The notes under the pieces were generated by a model. That model saw only the letters and a list, made by a program, of their open reading frames with translations, did not search any database and was not told where the DNA came from. Shown in pieces: positions 8,931-35,474 of a stretch of DNA of 64,000 nt (its first letter is position 1; each line of letters begins with the position of its first letter). The stretch is from Acutalibacteraceae bacterium (lineage in GTDB: Bacteria > Bacillota > Clostridia > Oscillospirales > Acutalibacteraceae): positions 671 through 64,670 of the forward strand of contig JAZQTM010000104.1 in the NCBI GenBank assembly GCA_045630765.1. The letters run 5' to 3'. Position numbers and translations under genes: made by a program.

Positions 8931-9407
8931 ATGACAAAGATCAGCAAGCTCTTAGCATTGTGTTTCGTATTGATGGCATTGATTCTGTGTATGGCACTCG
9001 CCGGTTGTAAAAAGACTCCTGTGTCTGACACGAATGACGATGCACAGGTAACAACCACGGTACAAGCAGGTGGTTCGACAACCGAAATTCAAGTCGGCGA
9101 AGAGGGCTTTATGCCGGATGATGACGACGTTGTGGTTGGAATCGAAGGCACCAAATCCTCAAGCTCCGTTGCCACTTCCAAATCTTCCGGCACGATGACA
9201 TCCACCACAAAATCTTCTGCCGCAGGGGGGACGACGAAGTCTTCTTCAAAGGCTACCACCACCACGAAGGGTCAACAAAGCGGAAATGTTTCGCAAAGCC
9301 AATCGACTGCAGAAGCTACCACAACAACGACCAAAGGCGCCACAATTACTACAACAACCAAAGGTGCTACAAAGTCCACTAATAAAAATGAAACGCCGAT
9401 TTATTAA
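8931..9407 (+). CDS. Small Thr/Ser-rich lipoprotein
   Basis: Lipobox LAGC at residues 23-26. The rest is low-complexity T/S/K sequence containing the tandem motif TTTTKGATI/TTTTKGATK. Confidence 0.6.
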   Translation: MTKISKLLALCFVLMALILCMALAGCKKTPVSDTNDDAQVTTTVQAGGSTTEIQVGEEGFMPDDDDVVVGIEGTKSSSSVATSKSSGTMTSTTKSSAAGGTTKSSSKATTTTKGQQSGNVSQSQSTAEATTTTTKGATITTTTKGATKSTNKNETPIY

Positions 9408-9419
9408 GTAACGCTATAC

Positions 9420-9461
9420 AAAAAGCCACCGTCCGTTATGTTGAGGACGGTGGCTTTTTTT
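9420..9461. terminator. Bidirectional hairpin terminator
   Basis: AAAAAGCCACCGTCC-GTTATGTTGA-GGACGGTGGCTTTTTTT. The AraC stop codon sits in the loop. Confidence 0.75.
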
Positions 9462-10386
9462 GGCTCTTTTTAGCGGGGGAACGTTTAGGCTTTGAGGGGA
9501 CAGATTCGGCAGACGCAGCAAGTGAAGAGGCAAACAAGCCTAGTGAAACGTCACCGTTTTGCTGCAATTCGCGCTCAAAAGAGGGGGCGTGCCCGTATTG
9601 CTTGGTGTAAACACGAGAAAAGTATTCCAACGAGGAGAAACCGCACATTTCCGAAATCTTGGAAATGGGATGCTCACTTTTCAGCAAAAGAGCAAGTGCG
9701 TTGGAGCAACGATAACGGTTGATGTACTCAACGATGGAAATTCCGGTTTCCTTTTTAAAGAATTTCGACAAATACCAACGGGAAATACCCACCTGATTAC
9801 CAATCGTTTCAAGCGTGAGCGGTTGTGAGTAATGCTCGTGAATATACGACGTAATGGATTGCAAAAGGGGAGGAGTACCGTCTTCTTCCGAGGAGGTTTT
9901 CGTATGCTTTCGCAGCAACTGCAACAGAATCAATTGTATTAAATTTTGAATATACAAGTTGTTCCACGCCAGCGCCTGTTTCTTTTCTCGTATCACCGAA
10001 CGGAAGAGTTCGATGATCTTCGCATCTTTTATCAACCCCTCAAACGTGTAGGTCCACACCTTATTCCCCGCAGGTAACAAGGCTTCGTTGAAGGTTAACA
10101 TCCAAGCCACCAACGGCTCATTGGTAACGCCTTGCATGAAGCGGTGCGTTTGGAGAGGATTAACAACAACCAATTCACCGGCAACAGCGGTAAAAAATGA
10201 TCCTTCCACAAAACACCCCAGCGTTCCTTGTTCTACCAAAATCAATTCCAGGTGATCGTGTCGATTGAAAGCGGAAGCATTTTCATTTTCAAAATTTTCG
10301 CAGCGAAGCGAAAATAACTCACCCTTTTTCAGGTGAGTCCCCAATGGAATATTATGCGTGTCGTTGGTAGAAGTGTTCATAAGCAA
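9436..10386 (-). CDS. AraC family transcriptional regulator (cupin-like sensor + HTH)
   Basis: The C-terminal half carries a typical AraC double HTH (LTLETIGNQVGISRWYLSKFFKKETGISIVEYINRYRCSNALALL ... CGFSSLEYFSRVYTKQYGHAPS). It is divergent from the GH130 genes. Confidence 0.85.
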   Translation of the reverse strand: MLMNTSTNDTHNIPLGTHLKKGELFSLRCENFENENASAFNRHDHLELILVEQGTLGCFVEGSFFTAVAGELVVVNPLQTHRFMQGVTNEPLVAWMLTFNEALLPAGNKVWTYTFEGLIKDAKIIELFRSVIREKKQALAWNNLYIQNLIQLILLQLLRKHTKTSSEEDGTPPLLQSITSYIHEHYSQPLTLETIGNQVGISRWYLSKFFKKETGISIVEYINRYRCSNALALLLKSEHPISKISEMCGFSSLEYFSRVYTKQYGHAPSFERELQQNGDVSLGLFASSLAASAESVPSKPKRSPAKKSQKKPPSST

Positions 10387-10601
10387 CTCCTAAAATTAGC
10401 CAATATAATACAGGGGCGTAACAACATTAACACTTGCGTGCCGAAAGATAAAATGTTATAGTAAAACTGTATATAATTCACAGTATTCTGCGACTTTCTG
10501 CCGTAAAGTATAGCATAATATCGACAAGATAGTCAAGAGGGTTTTTGTGAATAATACCGCACTACGTATTGTGGCAGATTTGATATTAAGGAGAATGGCA
10601 A

Positions 10602-11543
10602 ATGGGAAAAGAAAAAGTATTCAATGAGTTCATTCTGCACCGTAGCGAGCACAACCCGTTGCTATCACCGTCAGATTTTCCGGGCGGTTTTGCCGACTCG
10701 GTTATGAACTGCGGTCAGGTTATCCACGATGGCAAGATTACCTTGTTGGTAGCGGTTGTTTATCGCGGCAGATACAATGGCGCGGAAGCCGGTATTCATG
10801 TGGCGACCAGTGAGGATGGTATTCATTTTGAAATCAATCCTGAACCGCTCTGCAAACCTGTAGATTGGGCTCCCGGCTGGAAGGAAATGGACCGTTGGGT
10901 TATCGATCCGCGCGTAACAAAGATCGACGATACCTATTATATTGTTCGTCCCGGCCAGTGTCCCGCCGGTCCGGTTGCCTTGTTGGAGAAAACCAAGGAT
11001 TTCAAATCGGTAGAATATATTGATTGCATTTCGTTACCTTCCAACCGTGTTCCTTGCTTGTTCCCCGAGAAGGTGAACGGCAGATATGCTCGGCTTGACA
11101 GACCGAATGCGGGCGGTATTTGGATTTCCTATTCACCCGATTTGGTTCATTGGGGCAGTTTCAAACCGCTGTTGATGCCGTGGGGTGCCTTTTTTGGATT
11201 GAAGGTTGGCCCGACACCTCCGATCAAGACCAAAGACGGTTGGTTGGAAATTTTTCACGGCGTGTGGCGCAACTGCGCGAACGAGCGCTATTCATTGAGC
11301 GCGATGTTGCTTGACCTGGATGATCCCTCCAAGATCATCGGCAACATGGAGAGCTGGATTTTGACCCCGCAAGCAGATTGCGAGCGTCTTGGAAACGTGA
11401 ACAATGTTGTGTTTGCGTGCGGTGCTTTGGCGGATGAAGAGAAAGATGAAATCCGTGTATACTACGGCGCCGCGGACGAGCACGTTTGCTTGGCAACCGG
11501 TTCGCTTAGCGAACTCATTGATGCTTGTAAAAAAGGAATCTAA
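10602..11543 (+). CDS. GH130 family glycoside phosphorylase, copy A (beta-mannoside phosphorylase-like)
   Basis: DPR catalytic-Asp context (WVIDPRVTKIDDTYYI). Basic phosphate-site-like residues are present (NRVPCLFPEKVNGRYARLDRP, IFHGVW), and the tail is YYGAADEHVCLA. RBS AAGGAG. Confidence 0.75.
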   Translation: MGKEKVFNEFILHRSEHNPLLSPSDFPGGFADSVMNCGQVIHDGKITLLVAVVYRGRYNGAEAGIHVATSEDGIHFEINPEPLCKPVDWAPGWKEMDRWVIDPRVTKIDDTYYIVRPGQCPAGPVALLEKTKDFKSVEYIDCISLPSNRVPCLFPEKVNGRYARLDRPNAGGIWISYSPDLVHWGSFKPLLMPWGAFFGLKVGPTPPIKTKDGWLEIFHGVWRNCANERYSLSAMLLDLDDPSKIIGNMESWILTPQADCERLGNVNNVVFACGALADEEKDEIRVYYGAADEHVCLATGSLSELIDACKKGI

Positions 11544-16113: not shown

Positions 16114-16803
16114 ATGGACAAATTAGTCAGAAAAATAGAAATTCCGCTTGCTCGTCGAGCAATAGAAAGAGCGGGACTGTATATAGTGAAGAAAGAGGAT
16201 CTTGATCGTCTTTCTGAAGTTGCGGCAGATGCATACCGTGATTACCCCTTACACAATTGGCTCACTAAGGGTAAATACGATGCCAAAGCATCCAAACTCA
16301 TTATGCAAATCACCCTTAAATCAATGACGGAAGATGCGATAATCTATGCCGATAGTGAAGAAATCAACGGCTTTGCGGTTTGGTTGCCCTTCGGTTTTAC
16401 GGGCAGCAAAACCCTTCCGTTTTTATTAAATGGCGGACTCAGTCTGATCCTTCATTCAGGCCTTGGGATTATCGGAAGACTTTTAACCTATGAAACCTAT
16501 GCGATGAATCTCAAAAAAGAGTTTACCGATAATTACGATTGGTACTTATACAACCTTTCGATCAAACAAGATGCACAGGGGAAAGGTATTGCCAGTAAAC
16601 TGATGCGCCCAATGTTGCAGTTTTGCGATGACGAAAGAATGGTCTCCTATTTGGAAACCAACAAAGATAAAAACGTTGGTTTGTATCAGCATTATGGGTT
16701 TGAACTCAAAAGGGAAGAGATAATTCCCAAAAGCCCTGTTACGCATTATTCGATGGTTCGGTATCCCATAGAACAACCGGAAGGGAGCAAGGACAATGCC
16801 TAA
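16114..16803 (+). CDS. GNAT family N-acetyltransferase
   Basis: Acetyl-CoA binding motif context LSIKQDAQGKGIASKLMRPMLQFCD ... NVGLYQHYGFE. RBS TAAGGAG. Confidence 0.75.
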   Translation: MDKLVRKIEIPLARRAIERAGLYIVKKEDLDRLSEVAADAYRDYPLHNWLTKGKYDAKASKLIMQITLKSMTEDAIIYADSEEINGFAVWLPFGFTGSKTLPFLLNGGLSLILHSGLGIIGRLLTYETYAMNLKKEFTDNYDWYLYNLSIKQDAQGKGIASKLMRPMLQFCDDERMVSYLETNKDKNVGLYQHYGFELKREEIIPKSPVTHYSMVRYPIEQPEGSKDNA

Positions 16804-17755
16804 AAAACAGAAAAAGTTCGCTGATGACGGCTGGGCTATTTGGGTAGATGGCGATGATACCAGTACCGTCTATATTAACGATTGGCTTAACCCTAAAGGT
16901 AAAAGTTATGTTGATTTAGCCGTTCGTATACGCGGTATGAAATCCGGAAAATCATTGCACGTATACGTGCCTTTTGCTGTTTCTTCTGAAGAGATAGAAG
17001 ACGTGTCGCTGCTTTTTAACGATACGAAAATTTTGCAGGCGACCTTTAGTGCTGCTTGTATTGTCGATTACAAGAAAAACGAATACACGTCAGAAATTGC
17101 CTATAACGGAAAAACGGTGGACATTGTACATATCAGCACTTTGGGATATGAAATAATCTCGTTGTCCGACGGCACACTGATTAACATCGATTTTGAAAAG
17201 ATCCAGCCGTTTATAGATAACGACGAAGCGTATTTTATTTGGCGTATGCCGCATAAAACCTTGGATGCCATATTCAAACCCCGCGTAAACGTGGGCAATG
17301 TAATGGACAGACTTCGCGACCTGATCACTACACCGGTTGTGTCTGAAAAATACGGCTATTCCATTCGCATTAACGAATCCCGCCTTTTGCCGGAAGAAAT
17401 CACAAGAATCGGTATGTTCCACCGTCAAAAACTAAAAAAGGCGGTCGTTACGCTTTCCGTTGATGAAAGCTACGAACTTAACGATGCAGGTTGCTACCGT
17501 ATTCGCCGTTTGGAAGAAAATTTGTATTGTGGTTATCTTCCCAACAAATACGATTGCGAAGACATTATTACGTATCAATGGCAACAAAATCGTGAAGACA
17601 ACCTGAAAGGTCATTTTAATTTCTACTATAACATTGCCAAAAACTCGGTAAGCAAAAGCAGTATGTTTTTGTATATGGTCTTGCTTTTAGCCATTGGTAT
17701 TTTCGGTGATCTTTTGGCAGAAATCGTCAAAACATTATTGCGTCAGGTTATGTAA
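16796..17755 (+). CDS. Hypothetical protein with single C-terminal transmembrane helix
   Basis: The start overlaps the GNAT stop by 8 nt. I recognise no motif. The C-terminal hydrophobic anchor is SSMFLYMVLLLAIGIFGDLLAEIV. Confidence 0.5.
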   Translation: MPKKQKKFADDGWAIWVDGDDTSTVYINDWLNPKGKSYVDLAVRIRGMKSGKSLHVYVPFAVSSEEIEDVSLLFNDTKILQATFSAACIVDYKKNEYTSEIAYNGKTVDIVHISTLGYEIISLSDGTLINIDFEKIQPFIDNDEAYFIWRMPHKTLDAIFKPRVNVGNVMDRLRDLITTPVVSEKYGYSIRINESRLLPEEITRIGMFHRQKLKKAVVTLSVDESYELNDAGCYRIRRLEENLYCGYLPNKYDCEDIITYQWQQNREDNLKGHFNFYYNIAKNSVSKSSMFLYMVLLLAIGIFGDLLAEIVKTLLRQVM

Positions 17756-17767
17756 AGGAGAGGTATT

Positions 17768-20605
17768 GTGAGATTAACTATTCCCATACTATTTAACTGT
17801 ATTCTTGTTCTCGCAGTCTACCTCATTGATAAATATACTCCCCTTAAAAAAATGCCGTATATGGCAAAACAAGTCATCATCGGTGTTTTATTTGGTGGCG
17901 TTTCCGCTTTCGCTTCAAGTTATGGCGTAGAGTGGTTGGGAACGACTGTAAACGTACGTGATGCGGCGCCCTTATCAGCAGGTCTTATTTTTGGCGCGCC
18001 TGCCGGCATCATTTCCGGTCTTATCGGTGACCTTTACCGCTGGTTCTCGGTGTATTGCGGCGCAGCCGTATATACACAGCTTGCCTGCAGTGTCGCCACC
18101 ATCCTTGCCGGTTTTATGGCAGCAGGGCTCAGAAAGCTGATGTTTGACAACAAAAAGCCTACGTGGGGTTACGGCATTTGTATTGCCGTTGTTTGTGAAG
18201 TCATTCATATGATCCTCATTTTCCTCACAAATATGGATGACTCCTCATATGCCTTCGAATTTGTCAAAGGCGCCACAATCCCCATGATTCTTGGCAATGC
18301 GGTGGCTGTTGGTGTTGCCATTCTCATTGTATCTGTTTTAAGCCGTGAACGTTTTACTCGCAAGAAAGGCAGTGAACGAATTGCCAATACGTTTCAGCGT
18401 TGGCTCCTTGTTTGCATTGTTGTTGCTTATTTAATAACAAGTGCCTTTACGTTCGTTCTTCAAAACGGAATGGTCAGCATTGAAACACAAGAGGTGTTTA
18501 CTACTGCGATAAATGATGTTGAAACAGATATCAAGGGAAAGTCCAACGCACAACTACTTAGTATTGCAGAGAAAGTCAAAGTTGAATATGAAGCGGATCG
18601 TAACATTTCGTTGCAATCACTTGCTCAAAAATATGACATTAAGGAAATCAATATTGTTGCGCAAAGCGGCCTTATTACCAACTCAACCGAAGCGGATGTC
18701 ATAAACAACTACGATATGAACAGCAAGGCACAATCCAAGGAGTTTGTGGACACACTTAAAACCAAGGATTCCTTTGTTCAAGAGTATACTCCCAGAGGAA
18801 AAGATGAATCCGTTTGGAGAAAATACGCGGCTATCAACTTAGAAGATGGCGGATTTATCCAAGTGGGGTACGATGCCGAGCAGTTCCACAAAATGCTCAA
18901 CGAGTTCGTGGTAGACGTTACTAAAAATCGCCACGTTGGCACAGGTGGCTTCGTTGCCGTTTGTGACGATAAACTCAATATGGTAATCGATAACGATTAC
19001 GCCGGTCTTTCTATTTCTACCATAGGTATTGACCCTCCGACCGAAATGAAAGAGGGCAAAACCGCTACGTCGCTTTACTATGCCGACATTGTTGATGGCA
19101 AAACCACCGACAGTATGGAATACATATATGTGTTTAAGTTCGTTGAGGGCTACTGCATCATTGCGGCACAACCTGCTTCGGAAGCAATGTTTATGCGTGA
19201 TGCTTCTCTTTACACGAGCATTTTTATGCAAGTGCTGATTTTTGCCGCACTTTTCGTATTTATTTACATACTGATCAAAAGAGTCATCATCAACAACTTA
19301 AAGAAGATCAACGATACGCTTGGTAGAATTACAGACGGCGATTTGAACGTCACGGTAGACGTTCGCTCCAACGAAGAATTTTCGTCCCTTTCGGATGATA
19401 TCAACTCAACCGTTACAACGCTTAAACAATATATTGCTGAAGCCGCTGCTCGTATTGATAAGGAACTTGAGTACGCAAAGCAGATTCAGCTTTCGGCGTT
19501 GCCTACCAACTTCCCCGAAGGTGAAGAGTATAGCATTTATGCGGCAATGATCGCCGCGAAAGAGGTCGGTGGCGACTTCTATGATTTCTACAAATTAAAC
19601 GATACCACCGTGGCTTTCCTTGCTGCTGACGTGTCGGGCAAAGGAATTCCGGCGGCAATGTTTATGATGACTGCCAAGACGATTATCAAAGACTTGGCAG
19701 AAAGAGGTTTGGCGGTAAACGATATTTTCACAAAGGCAAACGAAAAGCTTTGTGAGAATAACGAATCGGGTATGTTTGTTACTGCTTGGATGGGTATTTT
19801 GGATTTGACTACCGGTAACGTGCAATTTGCCAATGCGGGACACAATCCGCCGCTGTTAAAACGTGCAGACGGCTCGTTTGAATATCTGAAAACACGAGCG
19901 GGATTTGTTCTGGCAGGTATGGAAGGCGTGTGTTACCGCGTGGGTGAAATCACGCTTGGCAAGGGCGATCGATTGTTCTTGTATACTGACGGTGTACCGG
20001 AGGCTACAAACGTCGAGAATAAGCTTTACGGTGAAGAAAGGCTCTTAACCTTTATGAACCAAAACGCCGACTTAAAAGCCGAATTGCTGTTACCTGCACT
20101 TAAAACGAATATCGATGAATTTGTGGGTGAAGCACCCCAGTTTGACGATATTACGATGCTGATGCTTGATTACAAACCTCAAAAAGGAGGTGAGCACTTG
20201 ACGAATAAAACATTCCCGGCCAAAACGGAAAGTTTGCCCGAGGTTCTTAGCTTCGTAGAAGAAACTCTCGAAAGTTTTGACTGTTCTATGAAAATCCAAA
20301 CGGCAATTTGCGTAGCCATTGAAGAAGTATTCGTCAACGTCGCTCGCTATGCCTATCCGGATACCGAGGGGGATATGTCACTTTACATTGGTTTTGATGA
20401 ACAAACCCGTGACGTGACGTTCCGTGTATCGGATAAGGGCGTTCCTTTTGATCCGCTAAAGAAACCCGATCCGGACATCACTCTTTCGGCAGAGGAGCGT
20501 GAAATCGGCGGCCTTGGCATTTTTATTACCAAGAAAACGATGGATACCGTAACTTACGCCTATGAAAATGGCGAAAACATTTTAACTATGATTAAGAAAA
20601 TCTAA
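17768..20605 (+). CDS. Membrane sensor: 5TM LytS-like module + Cache-like extracytoplasmic domain + HAMP + PP2C (SpoIIE-type) phosphatase + RsbW-type anti-sigma kinase (HATPase) domain
   Basis: GTG start follows AAAGGAGAGG. The N-terminal hydrophobic module contains NVRDAAPLSAGLIFGAPAGIISGLIGDLYRWF. The HAMP region is NNLKKINDTLGRITDGDLNVTVDVRSNEEFSSLSDDIN. PP2C motifs are GGDFYDFYKL, DVSGKGIPAAMFM, LYTDGVPEA and DDITMLML. The C-terminal kinase boxes are EEVFVNVARYAY, DKGVPFDP and GGLGIFI. Confidence 0.8.
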   Translation: MRLTIPILFNCILVLAVYLIDKYTPLKKMPYMAKQVIIGVLFGGVSAFASSYGVEWLGTTVNVRDAAPLSAGLIFGAPAGIISGLIGDLYRWFSVYCGAAVYTQLACSVATILAGFMAAGLRKLMFDNKKPTWGYGICIAVVCEVIHMILIFLTNMDDSSYAFEFVKGATIPMILGNAVAVGVAILIVSVLSRERFTRKKGSERIANTFQRWLLVCIVVAYLITSAFTFVLQNGMVSIETQEVFTTAINDVETDIKGKSNAQLLSIAEKVKVEYEADRNISLQSLAQKYDIKEINIVAQSGLITNSTEADVINNYDMNSKAQSKEFVDTLKTKDSFVQEYTPRGKDESVWRKYAAINLEDGGFIQVGYDAEQFHKMLNEFVVDVTKNRHVGTGGFVAVCDDKLNMVIDNDYAGLSISTIGIDPPTEMKEGKTATSLYYADIVDGKTTDSMEYIYVFKFVEGYCIIAAQPASEAMFMRDASLYTSIFMQVLIFAALFVFIYILIKRVIINNLKKINDTLGRITDGDLNVTVDVRSNEEFSSLSDDINSTVTTLKQYIAEAAARIDKELEYAKQIQLSALPTNFPEGEEYSIYAAMIAAKEVGGDFYDFYKLNDTTVAFLAADVSGKGIPAAMFMMTAKTIIKDLAERGLAVNDIFTKANEKLCENNESGMFVTAWMGILDLTTGNVQFANAGHNPPLLKRADGSFEYLKTRAGFVLAGMEGVCYRVGEITLGKGDRLFLYTDGVPEATNVENKLYGEERLLTFMNQNADLKAELLLPALKTNIDEFVGEAPQFDDITMLMLDYKPQKGGEHLTNKTFPAKTESLPEVLSFVEETLESFDCSMKIQTAICVAIEEVFVNVARYAYPDTEGDMSLYIGFDEQTRDVTFRVSDKGVPFDPLKKPDPDITLSAEEREIGGLGIFITKKTMDTVTYAYENGENILTMIKKI

Positions 20606-20619
20606 AGGGGATTATAACT

Positions 20620-20916
20620 ATGACTATCGAAACCAAAAAGACCGAAACAGCAACCATCATTGAGATCGTCGGCAGACTGGATACCATTACCGCTCCCGCA
20701 CTGGACAAAACCATTAACGAGGATATTGGAGATGCCAAAAATCTCGTCCTTGATCTGAAAGGTCTGGAGTATATCTCCAGCGCCGGTCTTCGCGTACTTC
20801 TCGCGGCGCAGAAGAAAATGCAAAAGATCGGTTCGATGAAAGTGACGGGCGTTTGCGCAGAGGTTATGGAAGTATTCGAGATGACCGGTTTTGCCGATAT
20901 TTTGGTGATTGAATAA
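20620..20916 (+). CDS. STAS domain protein (anti-sigma-factor antagonist, SpoIIAA/RsbV-like)
   Basis: 98 aa with the conserved phospho-serine context LKGLEYISSAGLRVLL. RBS AAAGGGG. Confidence 0.85.
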   Translation: MTIETKKTETATIIEIVGRLDTITAPALDKTINEDIGDAKNLVLDLKGLEYISSAGLRVLLAAQKKMQKIGSMKVTGVCAEVMEVFEMTGFADILVIE

Positions 20917-21482
20917 TGGAACTGGTAAGTGAAGCAATCGCATTTGCCGTGAAAGCGCACGACGGAATGCGTCGTAAAAAAAGTGAATTGCCCTATATTT
21001 TGCATCCAATGGAAGCGGCAACGATCGTCGGTACGATGACGGAGGATCAAAACTTGATTGCAGCCGCCGTTTTGCATGACGTTGTGGAAGATGCAGGGGT
21101 TACGATTGACGAGATTGAAGAAAAATTCGGCGCGCGTGTGCGGGAACTTGTTGAATCGGAAACGGAAAACAAACGAGCGGATTTACCACCAAGTGATACG
21201 TGGCGTATCCGCAAAGAAGAAACCCTTGCCGCCTTGAAAAGCACCGATGATATTGAGGTGCTGATGGTATGGCTTGGCGATAAGCTTGCCAATATGCGTG
21301 CCATCTACCGCGATTTCAAGGTAGAGGGTGTGGCAATGTGGCAGCGATTCAATCAAAAAGACGCAAACGAGCAGGCTTGGTACTATCGCTCCATTGTTGC
21401 TTTAACCGAGCGTCTGTCCGATACGTCGGCTTGGCTCGAATATAAGACTCTGACAGAACTTGTCTTTGGAAAAGGAGAATAA
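20916..21482 (+). CDS. RelA/SpoT-type HD domain protein (small alarmone hydrolase-like)
   Basis: Motifs AVKAHDGMRRKKSELPYILHPMEAA and AAVLHDVVEDAG (HD...ED), with no synthetase domain. The start shares one base with the STAS stop (TAATG). Confidence 0.7.
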   Translation: MELVSEAIAFAVKAHDGMRRKKSELPYILHPMEAATIVGTMTEDQNLIAAAVLHDVVEDAGVTIDEIEEKFGARVRELVESETENKRADLPPSDTWRIRKEETLAALKSTDDIEVLMVWLGDKLANMRAIYRDFKVEGVAMWQRFNQKDANEQAWYYRSIVALTERLSDTSAWLEYKTLTELVFGKGE

Positions 21483-21486
21483 ACCC

Positions 21487-22665
21487 ATGAACGTTACTTA
21501 TCGTGTTGATAAAGACATTTTGTATATTGCGATTGAGGGCAGAGTTGATGCTACCAACGCAGCAGAGGCAGAAGAGAAAATCTTTGCTATTAAGAATGAA
21601 AACCCCGACAAACATACCGTCATTGACGCCGATACACTTGAGTACATATCTTCTGCAGGGCTTAGAGTGATTTTAAGACTTCGCAAAGAAGAACCGAAAC
21701 TCGCCATTATCAACGTATCTTCCGATGTCTATGAAGTGTTTGATATGACCGGCTTTACCGATATGGTGACGGTTGAAAAAGCGTATCAACGAATGAGCGT
21801 TGAGGGCTGTGAGTTTATTGCAAAGGGTGCGAACGGTGCCGTTTATCGTTATGATGACGAAACCATCCTCAAAACCTATTTTGCAAAAGATGCTCTCCCT
21901 GAAATTAAGCAGGAGCGCGAAAACGCAAGAAAGGCGTTCATCCTCGGCATCAATACCGCTATTCCTTACGGTATTGTTCGCGTAGGGGAAGGGTACGGTA
22001 CCGTTACCGAACTTCTCAATGCGGTTAGCGTTACAAAATTAATTCGCAAAAATCCCGACGATATGTCCGAGGCTGCAAAATACTACATCGATATGCTTAA
22101 AAGCATTCACGCCATCGAGGTGGAAGACGGCGAAGTGCCCGATATGAAGGAAACGGCACTTGCTTGGGCAGATTTTGTTGCCAAACATATTCCTGAAGAT
22201 CAGGGCAAAAAACTGCGCGCCTTGATCGAAGCCGTTCCCAAGAGAAACACACTGATGCACGGTGACTATCACACCAATAATATTATGGTGCAAAACGGTG
22301 AGCCGTTGCTGATTGATATGGATACTCTTTGTATGGGACACCCTGTGTTTGAACTCGGCTCAATGTTCAATGCCTTTATCGGCTATTCCGAACTTGACCA
22401 CGAGGTGACCGAGAAATTCTTTGGCTACACTCACGAAGCTGCCGAGAAATTCTGGGATATGTCTCTTAAAATGTATCTCGGCACGGATGACGAAGGCGTG
22501 TGCAGAAGCGTTGCGGAAAAGGCAATGATTATCGGTTATACCCGTATGCTCCGTCGTGCCGTTCGCCGTCCTGAAGAAGCGGACAGCCCTGCTAAGATCG
22601 CAAGATGTAAGGAAATGCTCGCTATTCTTCTTGAAAAGACCGATAGCCTTTGTTTCGATTGCTAA
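21487..22665 (+). CDS. STAS domain fused to APH/protein-kinase-like domain
   Basis: ATG at 21487 follows AAGGAG. The N-terminal STAS domain carries LEYISSAGLRVILRL. The kinase-like fold shows a Gly loop (GANGAVY), a Lys (ILKTY), a catalytic HGDYHTNNIM and IDMDT. Confidence 0.7.
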   Translation: MNVTYRVDKDILYIAIEGRVDATNAAEAEEKIFAIKNENPDKHTVIDADTLEYISSAGLRVILRLRKEEPKLAIINVSSDVYEVFDMTGFTDMVTVEKAYQRMSVEGCEFIAKGANGAVYRYDDETILKTYFAKDALPEIKQERENARKAFILGINTAIPYGIVRVGEGYGTVTELLNAVSVTKLIRKNPDDMSEAAKYYIDMLKSIHAIEVEDGEVPDMKETALAWADFVAKHIPEDQGKKLRALIEAVPKRNTLMHGDYHTNNIMVQNGEPLLIDMDTLCMGHPVFELGSMFNAFIGYSELDHEVTEKFFGYTHEAAEKFWDMSLKMYLGTDDEGVCRSVAEKAMIIGYTRMLRRAVRRPEEADSPAKIARCKEMLAILLEKTDSLCFDC

Positions 22666-22679
22666 AGGAGACGGATGTT

Positions 22680-23576
22680 ATGAAAAGTAAGGGCTTGAAA
22701 GTACCGGTAATCCTTATTGTCGTCAGCATAATTGTTGCGATTTTGGCAAGTTTACTGGTCTCGATGCAAAAAACTCCCGCCATAACAAAACACGATTTTG
22801 ATTTCTCAATCACTTATAAACTCGACGGAGAAACCAAAACGCTAAACGGTGTTTACAGTTGTCGTTTTACAGGTTTTGGAGGGGACGGTGTCGACCCGCT
22901 TTGCCGATATTACGAAGGCACGTATACGGTAGAAGGCGAGAGCGATAATGACCGTTGCTTTACAATTGCCCAAAAAGACGGATACGAACTTTATATCGTG
23001 GCGCTTTTGAACGATTCCTACCTTATGGGTGATGTGAAAAACGATTCGTATGACTCGTACAACGAAAGACCTACTCTTGAAGCAGAAGACAACGAAGGCT
23101 ATCAATACGATGAAGCGGATTTGCCCGCTGTTTTTGATGCCGAGATCGTCAGCTTTGAATATCCCGAACCGATTGAAAACACATTCCGTTTTACGGGCTT
23201 TTCGGGGCTTCATGCTACAAGTACGGGTGTGATGACGCTCGTTGGTGTTTTAGCCCTTATTCTTTGTATGATTTTTGTAAGGAAGGGCAGCGACGTTGAA
23301 TATCGTGTGCTCGATAAGTTTGGCATTGCGCTCAATTTCGCGGCGATGTTTTTTGTGCTTCCCATTCTGTATATCACGGCGGTTTTTGTTCAGGCATACC
23401 CGACGGGACCGGATTGGATATATCAAGCGTATCTGTGTATTCCGCAGATGATTCCGTTCTCCATTGCGGCATCGGTATCTTTGCGGCGTAAAGGATTCAG
23501 AAAAAGCGGATTTTGTGTTCAGTTCATAGCACTTGTGATAGAAGCGATACTTATTCTGATAGAATATATCTTATAA
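22680..23576 (+). CDS. Membrane protein of unknown function, paralog 1
   Basis: ATG at 22680 follows AAAGGAG. An N-terminal TM helix precedes an acidic, aromatic-rich external domain (FDFSITYKLDGETKTLNGVYSCRF ... VSFEYPEPIENTFRF) and about four C-terminal TM helices. Confidence 0.55.
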   Translation: MKSKGLKVPVILIVVSIIVAILASLLVSMQKTPAITKHDFDFSITYKLDGETKTLNGVYSCRFTGFGGDGVDPLCRYYEGTYTVEGESDNDRCFTIAQKDGYELYIVALLNDSYLMGDVKNDSYDSYNERPTLEAEDNEGYQYDEADLPAVFDAEIVSFEYPEPIENTFRFTGFSGLHATSTGVMTLVGVLALILCMIFVRKGSDVEYRVLDKFGIALNFAAMFFVLPILYITAVFVQAYPTGPDWIYQAYLCIPQMIPFSIAASVSLRRKGFRKSGFCVQFIALVIEAILILIEYIL

Positions 23577-23597: not shown

Positions 23598-24485
23598 ATG
23601 AAAAACCAAAAATTGTTTTTACCAACCATCATTTTTGTTGCGGCACTTGTGATTACTATGGTTGCTGTACTTATCGCCGGTATCGCGTTAAAACCAAAGA
23701 TTACCGAAAGTGAGTTCCCGTTTTCTATCACGTACGAATTAGATGGCGAAACCGTAACAATCAGTGACGTTTACAAAGTGCGGTATGAACCGGATAACGA
23801 ATATAAAAACCGTGTATACGTCGGTGAAATTTGCAATAAGGAAGAAGACAATACCTACTACACTCTTAAAAGGGATGACACCGGCAGAATTGAGTTGTGG
23901 ACTCATTTTTATGCGGACTATCTGATGGGCGATCCCGAGTACGATTATTTTGATGAATATTCTTTTGAACCGATAATTTATTATTATGATACTCAAGAAA
24001 TCGAGTATCACGATGAAGAAACCTTGTCGAAGCAAGGCGTAAAGCTGATAAGCTTTGAATATCCCGAACCGATTGAGAATTCGTTGGCTTTTTCGCATTT
24101 CGTATTTCCGGGAAGTGAAGTGATATTCCCCTCGCTTTTGATCGCTTTCTTGGCAATGATCGCAACCCTTATTTTTGTCAAAAAAGATAGCGAGTATGTT
24201 CGTAAGCCAATCAACATCATTACACTCGTTTTCAATTTTGTTATCGGATTTACCGTGTTGCCGTTTTTCACGATTTTGGCTCTTATGCTCAGCGCATTGG
24301 GTGACATTGGCGATGTAATGGATTTGGTGTCTTACTTACTTCCTGCGATAACACTTCTTTGCATTACCGCTTCGATTGGCTTGCGCCGCAAATTATATGC
24401 TAAGAGTGCACTGATCGTTCAGTTTGTATCTCCTGCCATCTTTGCGGTGATTATGATTATTAGTGCTTGCCTCGGTTTAATGTGA
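23598..24485 (+). CDS. Membrane protein of unknown function, paralog 2
   Basis: Same architecture as 22680-23576, with shared motifs (FPFSITYELDGETVTISDVYKVRY ... ISFEYPEPIENSLAF). Confidence 0.55.
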   Translation: MKNQKLFLPTIIFVAALVITMVAVLIAGIALKPKITESEFPFSITYELDGETVTISDVYKVRYEPDNEYKNRVYVGEICNKEEDNTYYTLKRDDTGRIELWTHFYADYLMGDPEYDYFDEYSFEPIIYYYDTQEIEYHDEETLSKQGVKLISFEYPEPIENSLAFSHFVFPGSEVIFPSLLIAFLAMIATLIFVKKDSEYVRKPINIITLVFNFVIGFTVLPFFTILALMLSALGDIGDVMDLVSYLLPAITLLCITASIGLRRKLYAKSALIVQFVSPAIFAVIMIISACLGLM

Positions 24486-24499
24486 AAAACACAAAAAAG

Positions 24500-24531
24500 A
24501 AAAGGCATAGCCCGTGTGGGCTATGCCTTTT
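24500..24531. terminator. Bidirectional terminator between convergent operons
   Basis: AAAAGGCATAGCCC-GTGT-GGGCTATGCCTTTT. Confidence 0.85.
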
Positions 24532-24539
24532 CTTTAATT

Positions 24540-26222
24540 TTAAGCTTTCTCAATATACTCGCGGATGAATTGTGCGAGCGCTTGTTCGGTCGCCGTAGCA
24601 GCTTCACGGTTTGCGGCGGAAACGGAAAGATAGATCTTCAGTTTCGGCTCCGTACCGGACGGACGGACGACAACAGAACCGGTATCCTTCAAGAAGAATT
24701 TAAGCACGTTGGATTTGGGTAAACCGTCAATTCCCAGGCTGTAGTCTAACATGTTAACAACGGTTTTACCTGCCATTTCGTCAAATCCGCCACGGAAAGC
24801 ATCCATAATTGCTTGCATCTTGTGGAAACCGGATTCGCCCTCAAATTCAAACGAATACAGCGTATTGTACGTGAATCCGAATTCTTCGTACAGCATTTCG
24901 AGTTTTTGGAGCAAGGAAATGCCTTGTGCCTTATAATACGAGAACATCTCGCAGATCAACAACGACGCATTCACCGCGTCCTTATCGCGCACGTAGTTGC
25001 CGCTCAAATACCCGTAGCTTTCCTCAAATCCCAGAATATATGCGTCTTTACGACCGGCAGCTTCCAGCACCGCGATTTGTTCGCCGATAAATTTGAATCC
25101 CGTTAAAACGTCAATGGTCTTAACGCTATATTTGTCAGCGATCTTTTTCGCCATATCCATCGTGACGATGGTTTTGACGAAAACGGGATCTTTCGGCATT
25201 TTATTATGCTTTTTCCGCTGTGAGCAAATGTAATCAAGGAGCAGAATACCGGTCTCATTACCCGACAGCAATACAAACTCATTGTCAAGGTTTCGTACCG
25301 CGATTCCCACACGGTCACAATCGGGATCCGTCGCAAGCAACAGATCGGCGTTTTCTTTTTTGGCATACTCCATGCCGAGCATCATCGTTTCGCGAATTTC
25401 GGGGTTCGGATACGGGCAGGTGGGGAAGTGACCGTCGGGTAATTCTTGCTCTTTCACCACCGTGATATTGGTGTATCCGCTTTCGGATAAGGCGCGAAGC
25501 ACAGGCTTCAATCCCGAACCGTTGAGCGGGGAATAGACGATGGAAACGGATTTGTCAATATTCTCGCCAAACAAAACGGATTGATTTTTCACTTCTTCGG
25601 TGAAGTGGGTATACACGTCATCCGGAATGTAGGAGATCGTGCCGTCTTGTTTCGCAGCCTCAAAATCGGTCAGTTTCACATCCTCGAAAACGTCCGTTTT
25701 TGAAATCTCGGCATAGATTTCATCCGCGGCGGCAACCGTGATCTGGCAACCGTCACTTCCGTACACCTTATAACCGTTATATTTCGAGGGGTTGTGGGAT
25801 GCCGTAACCATAACACCGGCGGCACACCCTAAATCACGTACTGCAAACGACAAACACGGTGTCGGCATTAACTCTTTATATAAGCACACCTGAATTCCGT
25901 TGGCAGCAAACACGCGGGCGGCAGTGACGGCAAACAGATCCGATTTGATTCTCGAATCGTAGCTGATCGCGATCTTGCGTTCCTTTTCACTGTAGTGCTT
26001 TACCACGTAATTGGCAAGACCTTGCGAAGCCTTGGCAACCGTATACACGTTCATACGGTTGCTTCCTGCGCCGATTACGCCGCGGAGTCCGCCTGTTCCG
26101 AATTCCAGTTCACGGTAGAACGCATCTTGGATCGCGTCTGCGTCATTCTCAATGCGTTTCAACTCTGCAACCAAATCGGGATCGGCAATTGCTTTTTCAC
26201 GCCAAAGTTTATATGCTTCCAT
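24540..26222 (-). CDS. Phosphoglucomutase/phosphomannomutase family phospho-sugar mutase
   Basis: Active-site loop TASHNPSKYNGYKVY and metal loop ATDPDCDRVG. 560 aa. Confidence 0.9.
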   Translation of the reverse strand: MEAYKLWREKAIADPDLVAELKRIENDADAIQDAFYRELEFGTGGLRGVIGAGSNRMNVYTVAKASQGLANYVVKHYSEKERKIAISYDSRIKSDLFAVTAARVFAANGIQVCLYKELMPTPCLSFAVRDLGCAAGVMVTASHNPSKYNGYKVYGSDGCQITVAAADEIYAEISKTDVFEDVKLTDFEAAKQDGTISYIPDDVYTHFTEEVKNQSVLFGENIDKSVSIVYSPLNGSGLKPVLRALSESGYTNITVVKEQELPDGHFPTCPYPNPEIRETMMLGMEYAKKENADLLLATDPDCDRVGIAVRNLDNEFVLLSGNETGILLLDYICSQRKKHNKMPKDPVFVKTIVTMDMAKKIADKYSVKTIDVLTGFKFIGEQIAVLEAAGRKDAYILGFEESYGYLSGNYVRDKDAVNASLLICEMFSYYKAQGISLLQKLEMLYEEFGFTYNTLYSFEFEGESGFHKMQAIMDAFRGGFDEMAGKTVVNMLDYSLGIDGLPKSNVLKFFLKDTGSVVVRPSGTEPKLKIYLSVSAANREAATATEQALAQFIREYIEKA

Positions 26223-35386: not shown

Positions 35387-35468
35387 ATGGTGCGGGCGAC
35401 AAGACTTGAACTTGCACGCTTGCGCATTGGCTCCTAAGACCAACGTGTCTGCCATTCCACCACGCCCG
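35387..35468 (-). tRNA. tRNA-Leu (anticodon UAG), type II with long variable arm, CCA encoded
   Basis: The reverse complement reads GCGGGCG TG GTG GAATGGCAGA CAC G TTGGT CTTAGGA GCCAA TGCGCAAGCGT GCAAG TTCAAGT CTTGT CGCCCGC A CCA. The acceptor stem is 7 bp, the anticodon loop is CT-TAG-GA and the T-loop is TTCAAGT. Confidence 0.9.
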
Positions 35469-35474
35469 CATAAC

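Follow-up and report, generated by a model that had tools for sequence, protein, structure and literature searches.

A proposed partner switch with STAS-controlled enzymes

Partner switching is the textbook mode of sigma factor control, exemplified in Bacillus by the RsbU/RsbV/RsbW and SpoIIE/SpoIIAA/SpoIIAB systems. To our knowledge, only a few cases have been described in which STAS proteins act on enzymes. One of these is said to be the SiaABCD system of Pseudomonas aeruginosa, which reportedly consists of the PP2C phosphatase SiaA, the kinase SiaB, the STAS protein SiaC and the diguanylate cyclase SiaD, with no sigma factor taking part. Here we describe an operon from an Acutalibacteraceae bacterium, found in a 64,000-nucleotide (64-kb) stretch of DNA (assembly GCA_045630765.1, contig JAZQTM010000104.1, positions 671 to 64,670) that is hereafter called the window and whose own numbering is used throughout. 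The operon encodes a membrane sensor carrying phosphatase and kinase domains, a free STAS protein, a small alarmone hydrolase, and a second STAS domain that is fused to a kinase of the APH fold. With a probability that we would put at roughly 60%, it is a partner-switching system of the RsbU/RsbV/RsbW type that operates without a sigma factor and regulates enzymes directly, and its last three genes (20620–22665) are, with the same probability, the output half of that system.

The closest precedent for this module is All4160 of Anabaena, a STAS::glycosyltransferase that is switched by the PP2C phosphatase HenR and the kinases Alr3423 and All2284, and whose function is controlled by phosphorylation of its STAS domain (PMC13555669). 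The fusion protein in the window shares the architecture of All4160, in that an N-terminal STAS domain with a candidate phosphorylatable serine is joined to a catalytic domain and PP2C and kinase domains are encoded in the same operon. It differs from All4160 in having an APH-fold kinase in place of the glycosyltransferase, in that kinase and phosphatase lie in the same operon and in one protein, and in that the module adds a second, free STAS protein and an alarmone hydrolase. The Bacillus switches share with the window a PP2C phosphatase, a GHKL serine kinase and STAS domains with a serine at the position of SpoIIAA Ser58. In contrast to those switches, the window module has no linked sigma factor, a single membrane protein carries both its kinase and its phosphatase, one of its two STAS substrates is joined to an enzyme, and its outputs would be enzymes rather than transcription. 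A sigma factor or other partner that the kinase holds and unphosphorylated STAS releases forms part of a classical partner switch; no sigma-70-like open reading frame (ORF) was found in the window or in the operons of 167 loci, with a query that could miss sigma factors of the extracytoplasmic function (ECF) type. SiaABCD is alike in being a switch without a sigma factor in which a STAS protein controls a nucleotide second-messenger enzyme, although the match of the window sensor to the SiaA model is weak; there a cyclic di-GMP cyclase is said to be regulated in trans, whereas here the outputs are a hydrolase of the RelA/SpoT homologue (RSH) type and a fused kinase.

The membrane sensor and the two STAS domains

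The four genes between 17768 and 22665 on the + strand form one operon, set in a tight row of + strand genes that the ORF listing places at 16.1–24.5 kb. The sensor, free STAS, hydrolase and fusion genes are spaced by 14 nt, −1 nt and 4 nt, and the Shine–Dalgarno-like ribosome-binding sites of the operon genes sit within the preceding genes. The first gene (17768–20605, +) encodes the PP2C/kinase sensor of 945 amino acids (aa), as recognized by Pfam. Its 5TM-LytS domain (aa 31–189; 5TM-5TMR_LYT, 1e-23) is followed by a transmembrane segment (211–231), a middle domain of ~250 aa that is probably extracytoplasmic, judging from the layout of the transmembrane segments, a second such segment (481–503) and a HAMP domain (503–553). 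The C-terminal part consists of a SpoIIE/PP2C domain (aa 612–802; 4.5e-49) and then an HATPase_c_2 domain (aa 816–943; 8.5e-25). All of the PP2C metal-binding motifs are present (GGDFYDF, ADVSGKG, LYTDGV and QFDDIT), as are the GHKL kinase motifs EEVFVNVARYAY (N box), SDKGVPFDP and GGLGIF; the N box E..N, DxGxPF and GGLG are invariant across nine homologues of the RsbW-like domain. In NCBIfam comparisons the kinase domain resembles RsbW and SpoIIAB, and the SiaA model matches the sensor at 2.1e-16, far under its cutoff. The original prediction, made from the letters of the window alone, had suggested that a single kinase/phosphatase could toggle both STAS domains, and this is supported both by the presence of PP2C and RsbW-type kinase domains in the product of the 17768 gene and by relatives in which HATPase_c_2 is fused to the STAS-APH protein.

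The window contains only two STAS domains. The free STAS protein (98 aa; 20620–20916, +) is matched by Pfam STAS (4.3e-17) and, above its cutoff, by the NCBIfam anti-sigma factor antagonist model (1.3e-20); the other forms the N-terminus of the fusion protein (aa 1 to ~105; 21487–21801, +; Pfam STAS, 1e-12). The two are 42% identical to each other (E=3e-18) and both carry LEYISSAGLRV(L/I)L, just as had been read from the sequence at the outset. That this motif marks the phosphoserine position of SpoIIAA/RsbV had also been proposed, and alignment places it there: when both domains are aligned by HMMER to the SpoIIAA structures 1auz, 1th8 and 1tid, the second serine of ISSAG falls on the first serine of DSSGL, which we take to be the phosphosite Ser58. 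The free STAS was also aligned to RsbV structures, and 6m36 was among the structures used. The candidate phosphoserines are thus S54 of the free STAS protein (codon 20779–20781) and S56 of the fusion protein (codon 21652–21654). S56 is invariant in 57 diverse fusion proteins (29–52% identity), and a set of 128 unique free STAS proteins drawn from related loci shows no variation at S53 or S54. The LEYISSAGLRV string was also considered as a special signal and rejected as such, since no other stretch of this STAS subfamily is as conserved, and it is common to two paralogous domains; it also occurs in PDB 4hyl.

A predicted RelH-type small alarmone hydrolase

The free STAS gene runs directly into the next gene through the sequence TAATG, in which the STAS stop codon (20914–20916) and the start codon of the hydrolase (20916–20918) share one base, the A. 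This overlap had been noted before, together with the assignment of the product as an HD...ED hydrolase of the RelA/SpoT type that lacks a synthetase, and both observations are borne out. The 188-aa protein (20916–21482, +) has Pfam HD_4 (8.4e-22) as its sole domain, with no RelA_SpoT synthetase, TGS or ACT domain. The solved structures nearest to it, both aligned over almost its whole length, are 7qoe from Leptospira levettii (3e-25; aa 5–163) and 7qoc from Corynebacterium glutamicum (1e-20). Both of these are small alarmone hydrolases termed RelH (PMC9293644). The catalytic and metal-binding residues are all there (R20, H30, H54-D55, E58-D59, D122 and N126) and are kept in 67–70 of the 73 unique HD_4 neighbours of STAS::APH genes, the rest being gaps in truncated ORFs. 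By domain content and residues the protein is therefore a small alarmone hydrolase of the RelH type, with catalysis predicted. It resembles RelH of C. glutamicum and L. levettii (7QOD/7QOE; PMC9293644) and Mesh1 in length and in its single HD_4 fold, and the residues mutated in the RelH study (an R, an ED and an N; R32, D71 and N137 in RelH) have their counterparts here (PMC9293644). Unlike RelH and Mesh1, it is tied to a STAS domain and a partner switch, a link that no paper found in our searches describes.

The free STAS protein had originally been cast as a free antagonist. It is probably a regulator of the HD hydrolase and not merely a generic antagonist, because natural STAS::HD_4 fusions exist and the two genes are translationally coupled.

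The STAS–kinase fusion protein

The fourth gene encodes the fusion protein (392 aa; 21487–22665, +; Pfam STAS and APH). The ORF listing starts it at TTG 21460, but the true start is taken to be ATG 21487, since this codon has AAGGAG ~10 nt upstream and homologues are 390–392 aa long. The kinase half (aa ~106–392; 21802–22665, +) is recognized by Pfam APH (1.6e-20) and by its AlphaFold model. Its best-scoring family is NCBIfam TIGR02172, a set of paralogous APH-like proteins of Fibrobacter succinogenes (1.4e-35, 123 bits); the score lies under the curated cutoff of 228 bits, so the fusion protein belongs to a related family rather than to TIGR02172 itself. Literature searches found no paper that mentions TIGR02172, a family without a known function.

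An APH/choline-kinase-like partner with the motifs GANGAVY, HGDYHTNN and IDMDT had been predicted, and their positions and conservation agree with this. The G-loop GANGAVY occupies aa 114–120 (21826–21846), K129 lies in ILKTY (21865–21879), the catalytic loop HGDYHTNN spans aa 258–265 (22258–22281), and the Mg-binding IDMDT spans aa 276–280 (22312–22326). In the 57 diverse fusion proteins K129, H258, N265 and D277 are invariant and D260 is kept in at least 90%, so that the catalytic lysine and aspartate that the kinase would need are retained on alignment.

An AlphaFold model of the fusion protein, built with a 57-sequence alignment, reached a predicted local distance difference test score (pLDDT) of 96.2 and a predicted template modelling score (pTM) of 0.88, and in it the STAS domain packs confidently against the kinase. 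The kinase half is modelled as a bilobal kinase with a helical substrate-binding C-lobe. Its best Foldseek matches are APH(2''), the viomycin/capreomycin kinase Cph, methylthioribose kinase, macrolide phosphotransferase and choline kinase, all at a probability of 1.0, with template modelling (TM) scores of 0.5–0.59 and ~14% identity (13–16% to solved APH structures). By sequence, the solved structures give weak local matches, the best being hygromycin kinase (3e-6 over ~75 residues). The model thus suggests a small-molecule-kinase fold, and the fold names no substrate. That the fused STAS domain could serve as an intramolecular switch, as first proposed, is supported by the invariant serine, by the confident packing in the model and by the small-molecule kinases among the closest structures.

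Gene neighbourhood in related genomes

The fusion family is very large, with >8000 members at E<=1e-5 (90% clusters); representatives at 50% identity number 5614 clusters at E<=1e-3, of which 671 reach E<=1e-30, and nearly all of the top 150 of the 50%-identity clusters span both STAS and APH. The nearest genomes are metagenome-assembled genomes of ruminant- and human-gut Clostridia (Oscillospiraceae and Acutalibacteraceae), and relatives are named in public records only as ‘anti-sigma factor antagonist’ or ‘phosphotransferase’.

Gene neighbourhoods were compared in a close set of 62 loci from ruminant-gut Clostridia with enough upstream flank, and in a divergent set of 57 metagenome loci at 48–55% identity. 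In the close set, 55 loci retain a PP2C/kinase sensor in its place, 59 have a free STAS, and in 40 the gene directly upstream of STAS::APH encodes HD_4. Of the divergent loci, 43 contain one or more partner-switch parts, and 17 have HD_4 directly upstream. HD_4 is the commonest neighbour of STAS::APH, and reciprocally three of four sampled hydrolase relatives adjoin a STAS::APH gene. The order of genes is modular: sensor and STAS come first, then optionally a protein designated X199 with a second STAS, optionally a small membrane protein, optionally the HD gene, and finally STAS::APH.

X199 is a conserved protein of ~200 aa whose gene comes after the first STAS and before the HD gene, in most cases followed by the second STAS, and is found in 19 close and 5 divergent loci (for example L020:6535-7137 and L107:581-1246). 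Its motifs LRL..EE and WDE.E.S are invariant, it belongs to no Pfam family, and its profile shows no significant similarity to that of the RsbW-like domain (probability 4.7%).

Across 167 loci and the window, two sigma-70-like ORFs were found, neither of them in an operon and neither in the window, with a query that could miss ECF-type sigma factors. RelA_SpoT synthetases lie near the module in three of the 167 loci, adjoining it in L053 and L164 and separated from it by 5 kb in L161; the 64-kb window holds no RelA_SpoT synthetase ORF. The order in L164 is RelA_SpoT synthetase, HD_4, STAS::APH. In L053, whose fusion protein is 80% identical to that of the window, the fusion gene is followed (9190–11104) by a 352-aa RelA_SpoT synthetase, a second HD_4 protein of 178 aa and another STAS, and these three downstream genes are adjacent or overlapping and make up a second alarmone cassette within the operon.

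Natural fusions and an alternative phosphoesterase partner

The genes that lie side by side in the window are found joined in relatives. HD_4+STAS+APH proteins form 25 clusters at 49–100% identity, to which P0345 is added, and HD_4+APH proteins without STAS also exist (P0326 and P0378). When the hydrolase and fusion protein of the window are concatenated, they align colinearly with the natural triple fusions. STAS+HD_4 fusions form 3 clusters, plus those in L075 and L167, each encoded directly upstream of a STAS::APH gene. HATPase_c_2 is joined to STAS-APH in either order (P0125, P0127 and P0134) and stands at the C-terminus of STAS-APH in 19 of the 57 divergent loci. Among the proteins checked, STAS+APH+PHP (P0133) and HD-CE+STAS+APH (P0179) were each seen once.

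Other variants of the STAS-APH protein were also observed. In P0179 (668 aa) the HD-CE domain is N-terminal (1e-37), P0155 (516 aa) has a C-terminal YezG-like immunity domain, and P0228 (580 aa) has an N-terminal extension of ~200 aa. In six loci a sodium:dicarboxylate symporter of the SDF family (1e-94) with an N-terminal extension of ~130 aa is encoded directly upstream of STAS+APH+HATPase_c_2 (for example L105:5210-6955), and in seven a DUF218 membrane protein adjoins the gene for this protein (for example L147:8556-9779), being downstream of it in six.

The triple fusions put an RSH hydrolase N-terminal to a phosphoryl-transferring domain, as do the HD_4-APH proteins, and in this they are like long RelA/SpoT enzymes. 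They are unlike them in that the second domain has the protein-kinase-like APH fold rather than the nucleotidyltransferase fold of a pyrophosphokinase; in the window, moreover, the two are separate genes. A functional analogy of HD_4/APH to long RelA/SpoT can be put forward as a hypothesis.

Clustering of the unannotated neighbours revealed a second type of partner. A PHP-domain protein of ~287 aa is encoded directly downstream of STAS::APH(::HATPase_c_2) in 17 loci (for example L144:1671-2534, L096, L102 and L105), in none of which HD_4 occurs. Among loci with both flanks, 16 have HD_4, 8 have PHP, 23 have neither and none has both. The PHP protein is TrpH/Cv1693-like: its nearest families are 3',5'-nucleoside bisphosphate phosphatase (1e-33, below cutoff) and RNase RNM/AM, and its nearest structures are 3e0f, 2yb1 (Cv1693) and 7ug9 (RNase AM). 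Both Cv1693 and RNase AM are described in PMC9410882. For the HD_4 and the PHP partner alike, the characterised relatives have nucleotide 3'-(pyro)phosphates as substrates. The kinase thus occurs with one or the other of two types of phosphoesterase, and it appears to be opposed by an enzyme that acts on nucleotide 3'-phosphates.

Proposed mechanism

On the reading that we favour, in which a partner switch without a sigma factor acts directly on enzymes, the 5TM-LytS, extracytoplasmic and HAMP modules would let the 945-aa sensor detect a cue from the envelope or from outside the cell, and this cue would set the balance between the PP2C phosphatase and the RsbW-like serine kinase of the sensor, which would respectively remove phosphate from and add it to S54 of the free STAS and S56 of the fused STAS. 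In cis, the fused STAS would gate the small-molecule kinase of the APH fold to which it is joined. The free STAS, whose gene is translationally coupled to the one that follows, would gate the RelH-type hydrolase in trans, through a contact between STAS and hydrolase that we infer. Hydrolase and kinase would then be one functional pair and not two unrelated outputs: the hydrolase would most likely act on nucleotides of the (p)ppGpp type, or on related ones, by removing a 3'-(pyro)phosphate, and the kinase would act in the same pathway. By analogy with All4160 and SiaC, the unphosphorylated STAS is probably the activating form. A link to alarmone turnover had been part of the original prediction, and is supported by HD_4 as the commonest neighbour of STAS::APH, by its fusion to the kinase in at least 26 clusters and by the synthetases in L053 and L164. 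Step by step, the inference first drawn from the letters is thus supported by sequence and comparative genomics.

Several observations weigh against this reading. HD_4 is missing from about one third of the close loci and ~70% of the divergent ones and is therefore not obligatory, and in L074, L078 and L161 STAS::APH stands with no partner-switch gene within the available flanks. STAS::HD_4 fusions are rare, with 3 clusters against >2600 stand-alone relatives. AlphaFold predicts the natural HD_4-STAS-APH protein as folded domains with a disordered linker at a pTM of 0.56, and so gives no evidence for a fixed contact between hydrolase and kinase; the hydrolase in the triple fusion would be tethered rather than rigidly docked. 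At TM scores of <=0.59 and ~14% identity, the substrate of the kinase cannot be read from its fold. The RsbW-like domain could hold an unlinked partner that is encoded elsewhere. Finally, literature searches found no relevant paper on the STAS-APH family or on TIGR02172, nor any on STAS with an alarmone hydrolase or on PP2C-HATPase sensors in Clostridia.

A more specific version of the proposal is rather doubtful, namely that the APH kinase and its phosphoesterase (HD_4 here, a TrpH/Cv1693-type PHP protein elsewhere) form a writer/eraser pair for an undescribed phosphorylated nucleotide. The kinase would act on a nucleotide, or on the end of an RNA or tRNA, and phosphorylate its ribose at the 3'- (or 2'-) hydroxyl; its partner would take this phosphate off again, and the STAS phospho-switch would set the balance. 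The idea arises because characterised relatives of both partners hydrolyse nucleotide 3'-(pyro)phosphates, and because HD_4 and PHP never co-occur and are each found fused to the kinase. If true, there would be a second-messenger system that resembles that of the alarmones but whose kinase has a fold with no relation to the RelA/SpoT synthetases.

The partner-switch reading would add a very large uncharacterised family from gut and rumen Firmicutes (at least 671 clusters at 50% identity, with thousands of proteins) to the cases of STAS-regulated enzymes. If it is correct, this would be the first link of a partner switch to alarmone metabolism, and the STAS phospho-switch would offer a new answer to how stand-alone alarmone hydrolases are regulated. 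The consistent pairing with nucleotide 3'-phosphoesterases narrows the question of the substrate of this orphan kinase, the answer to which could reveal a new signalling nucleotide. The pairing of hydrolase and kinase under a predicted phospho-switch recurs in thousands of uncultured bacteria, and no study of it was found in the literature searches.

Alternative explanations

It is improbable, though less so than the alternatives that follow, that the APH-fold domain is a protein kinase of the YihE/SrkA or CotS kind, forming a second kinase layer with the STAS or the hydrolase as its possible target. There is weak similarity to the families SrkA (2e-4), CotS (1e-5) and Bud32 and to the YihE and YtaA structures, but the structures that match best are those of small-molecule kinases, in which a helical C-lobe binds the substrate. 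Moreover, a dedicated RsbW-type STAS kinase is already there, and in many relatives it is even fused to STAS-APH; the HD_4-APH fusions that lack STAS likewise speak against this reading.

The nearest solved structures, which include APH(2''), the Cph viomycin/capreomycin kinase, macrolide 2'-phosphotransferase and hygromycin kinase, could also be taken to mean that the module is an inducible xenobiotic or antibiotic kinase, in which the APH domain inactivates an aminoglycoside-, macrolide- or peptide-type antibiotic once the envelope sensor has activated it through STAS. These similarities are remote (14% identity, TM <=0.59), and the NCBIfam APH(3') model (APH_3p) scores 17.5 bits against a cutoff of 205. 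The family is also huge and chromosomal in gut anaerobes, and its recurrent pairing and fusion with nucleotide phosphoesterases would be left unexplained, so that we regard this as quite improbable.

Very improbable, in our view, is a classical anti-sigma switch, in which the sensor HATPase_c_2 domain would sequester a sigma factor encoded elsewhere, the STAS proteins would be no more than antagonists, and hydrolase and kinase would be mere co-transcribed members of the regulon. The free STAS passes the NCBIfam model for anti-sigma factor antagonists, the kinase domain is RsbW/SpoIIAB-like, and relatives bear the name ‘anti-sigma factor antagonist’ in public records. Yet the search described above, over 167 loci and the window, gave only two sigma-70-like ORFs, both unlinked, and the RsbW-like domain either belongs to a membrane sensor or is itself joined to STAS-APH. 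Covalent fusion of STAS to enzymes in hundreds of clusters makes co-transcription alone insufficient as an explanation.

The least credible alternative is a toxin–antitoxin or phage-defence module, in which the HD protein would serve as antitoxin to a small alarmone synthetase that is toxic, with kinase and STAS parts as accessory sensors. Toxic synthetases can indeed be neutralised by small alarmone hydrolases (PMC9765508), and synthetases do occur near the module at the three loci named above. That aspect of the original prediction does not apply to the window because there is no synthetase within its 64 kb. Moreover, the constant partner of the hydrolase is a kinase and not a synthetase, PADLOC defence models match none of seven operon proteins, and the genes surrounding the operon are ordinary chromosomal ones. 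PHROGs gave generic phosphohydrolase and kinase matches only.

Flanking genes and the transcription unit

A strong hairpin first appears at 24496–24535, between the last + strand gene (ending at 24485) and a convergent phosphomutase-like gene (ending at 24540). It has an 18-pair stem followed by a T run, was recognized by a consensus scan only and is assigned to no strand; judged from these letters, it is probably the 3' end of the transcription unit. When the entire window was scanned with Rfam, the sole match was a tRNA at 35391–35469 (−), and no riboswitch that could name a ligand, such as one for ppGpp or PRPP, turned up.

The gene directly 5' of the sensor (16796–17755) encodes a 319-aa protein with a C-terminal hydrophobic segment; it is found at this place in all close relatives and is absent from the divergent loci, and its product has no Pfam or PADLOC match. 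After the fusion gene come two paralogous membrane proteins (22680–23576 and 23598–24485), each with an N-terminal transmembrane segment, a domain of ~150 aa and several C-terminal transmembrane segments, which match no Pfam or PADLOC family and occur in close relatives only. All three genes were considered as core parts of the module and rejected, as they are restricted to close relatives. The likely start of the first downstream membrane-protein gene is ATG 22680, which follows AGGAGA, and not TTG 22650.

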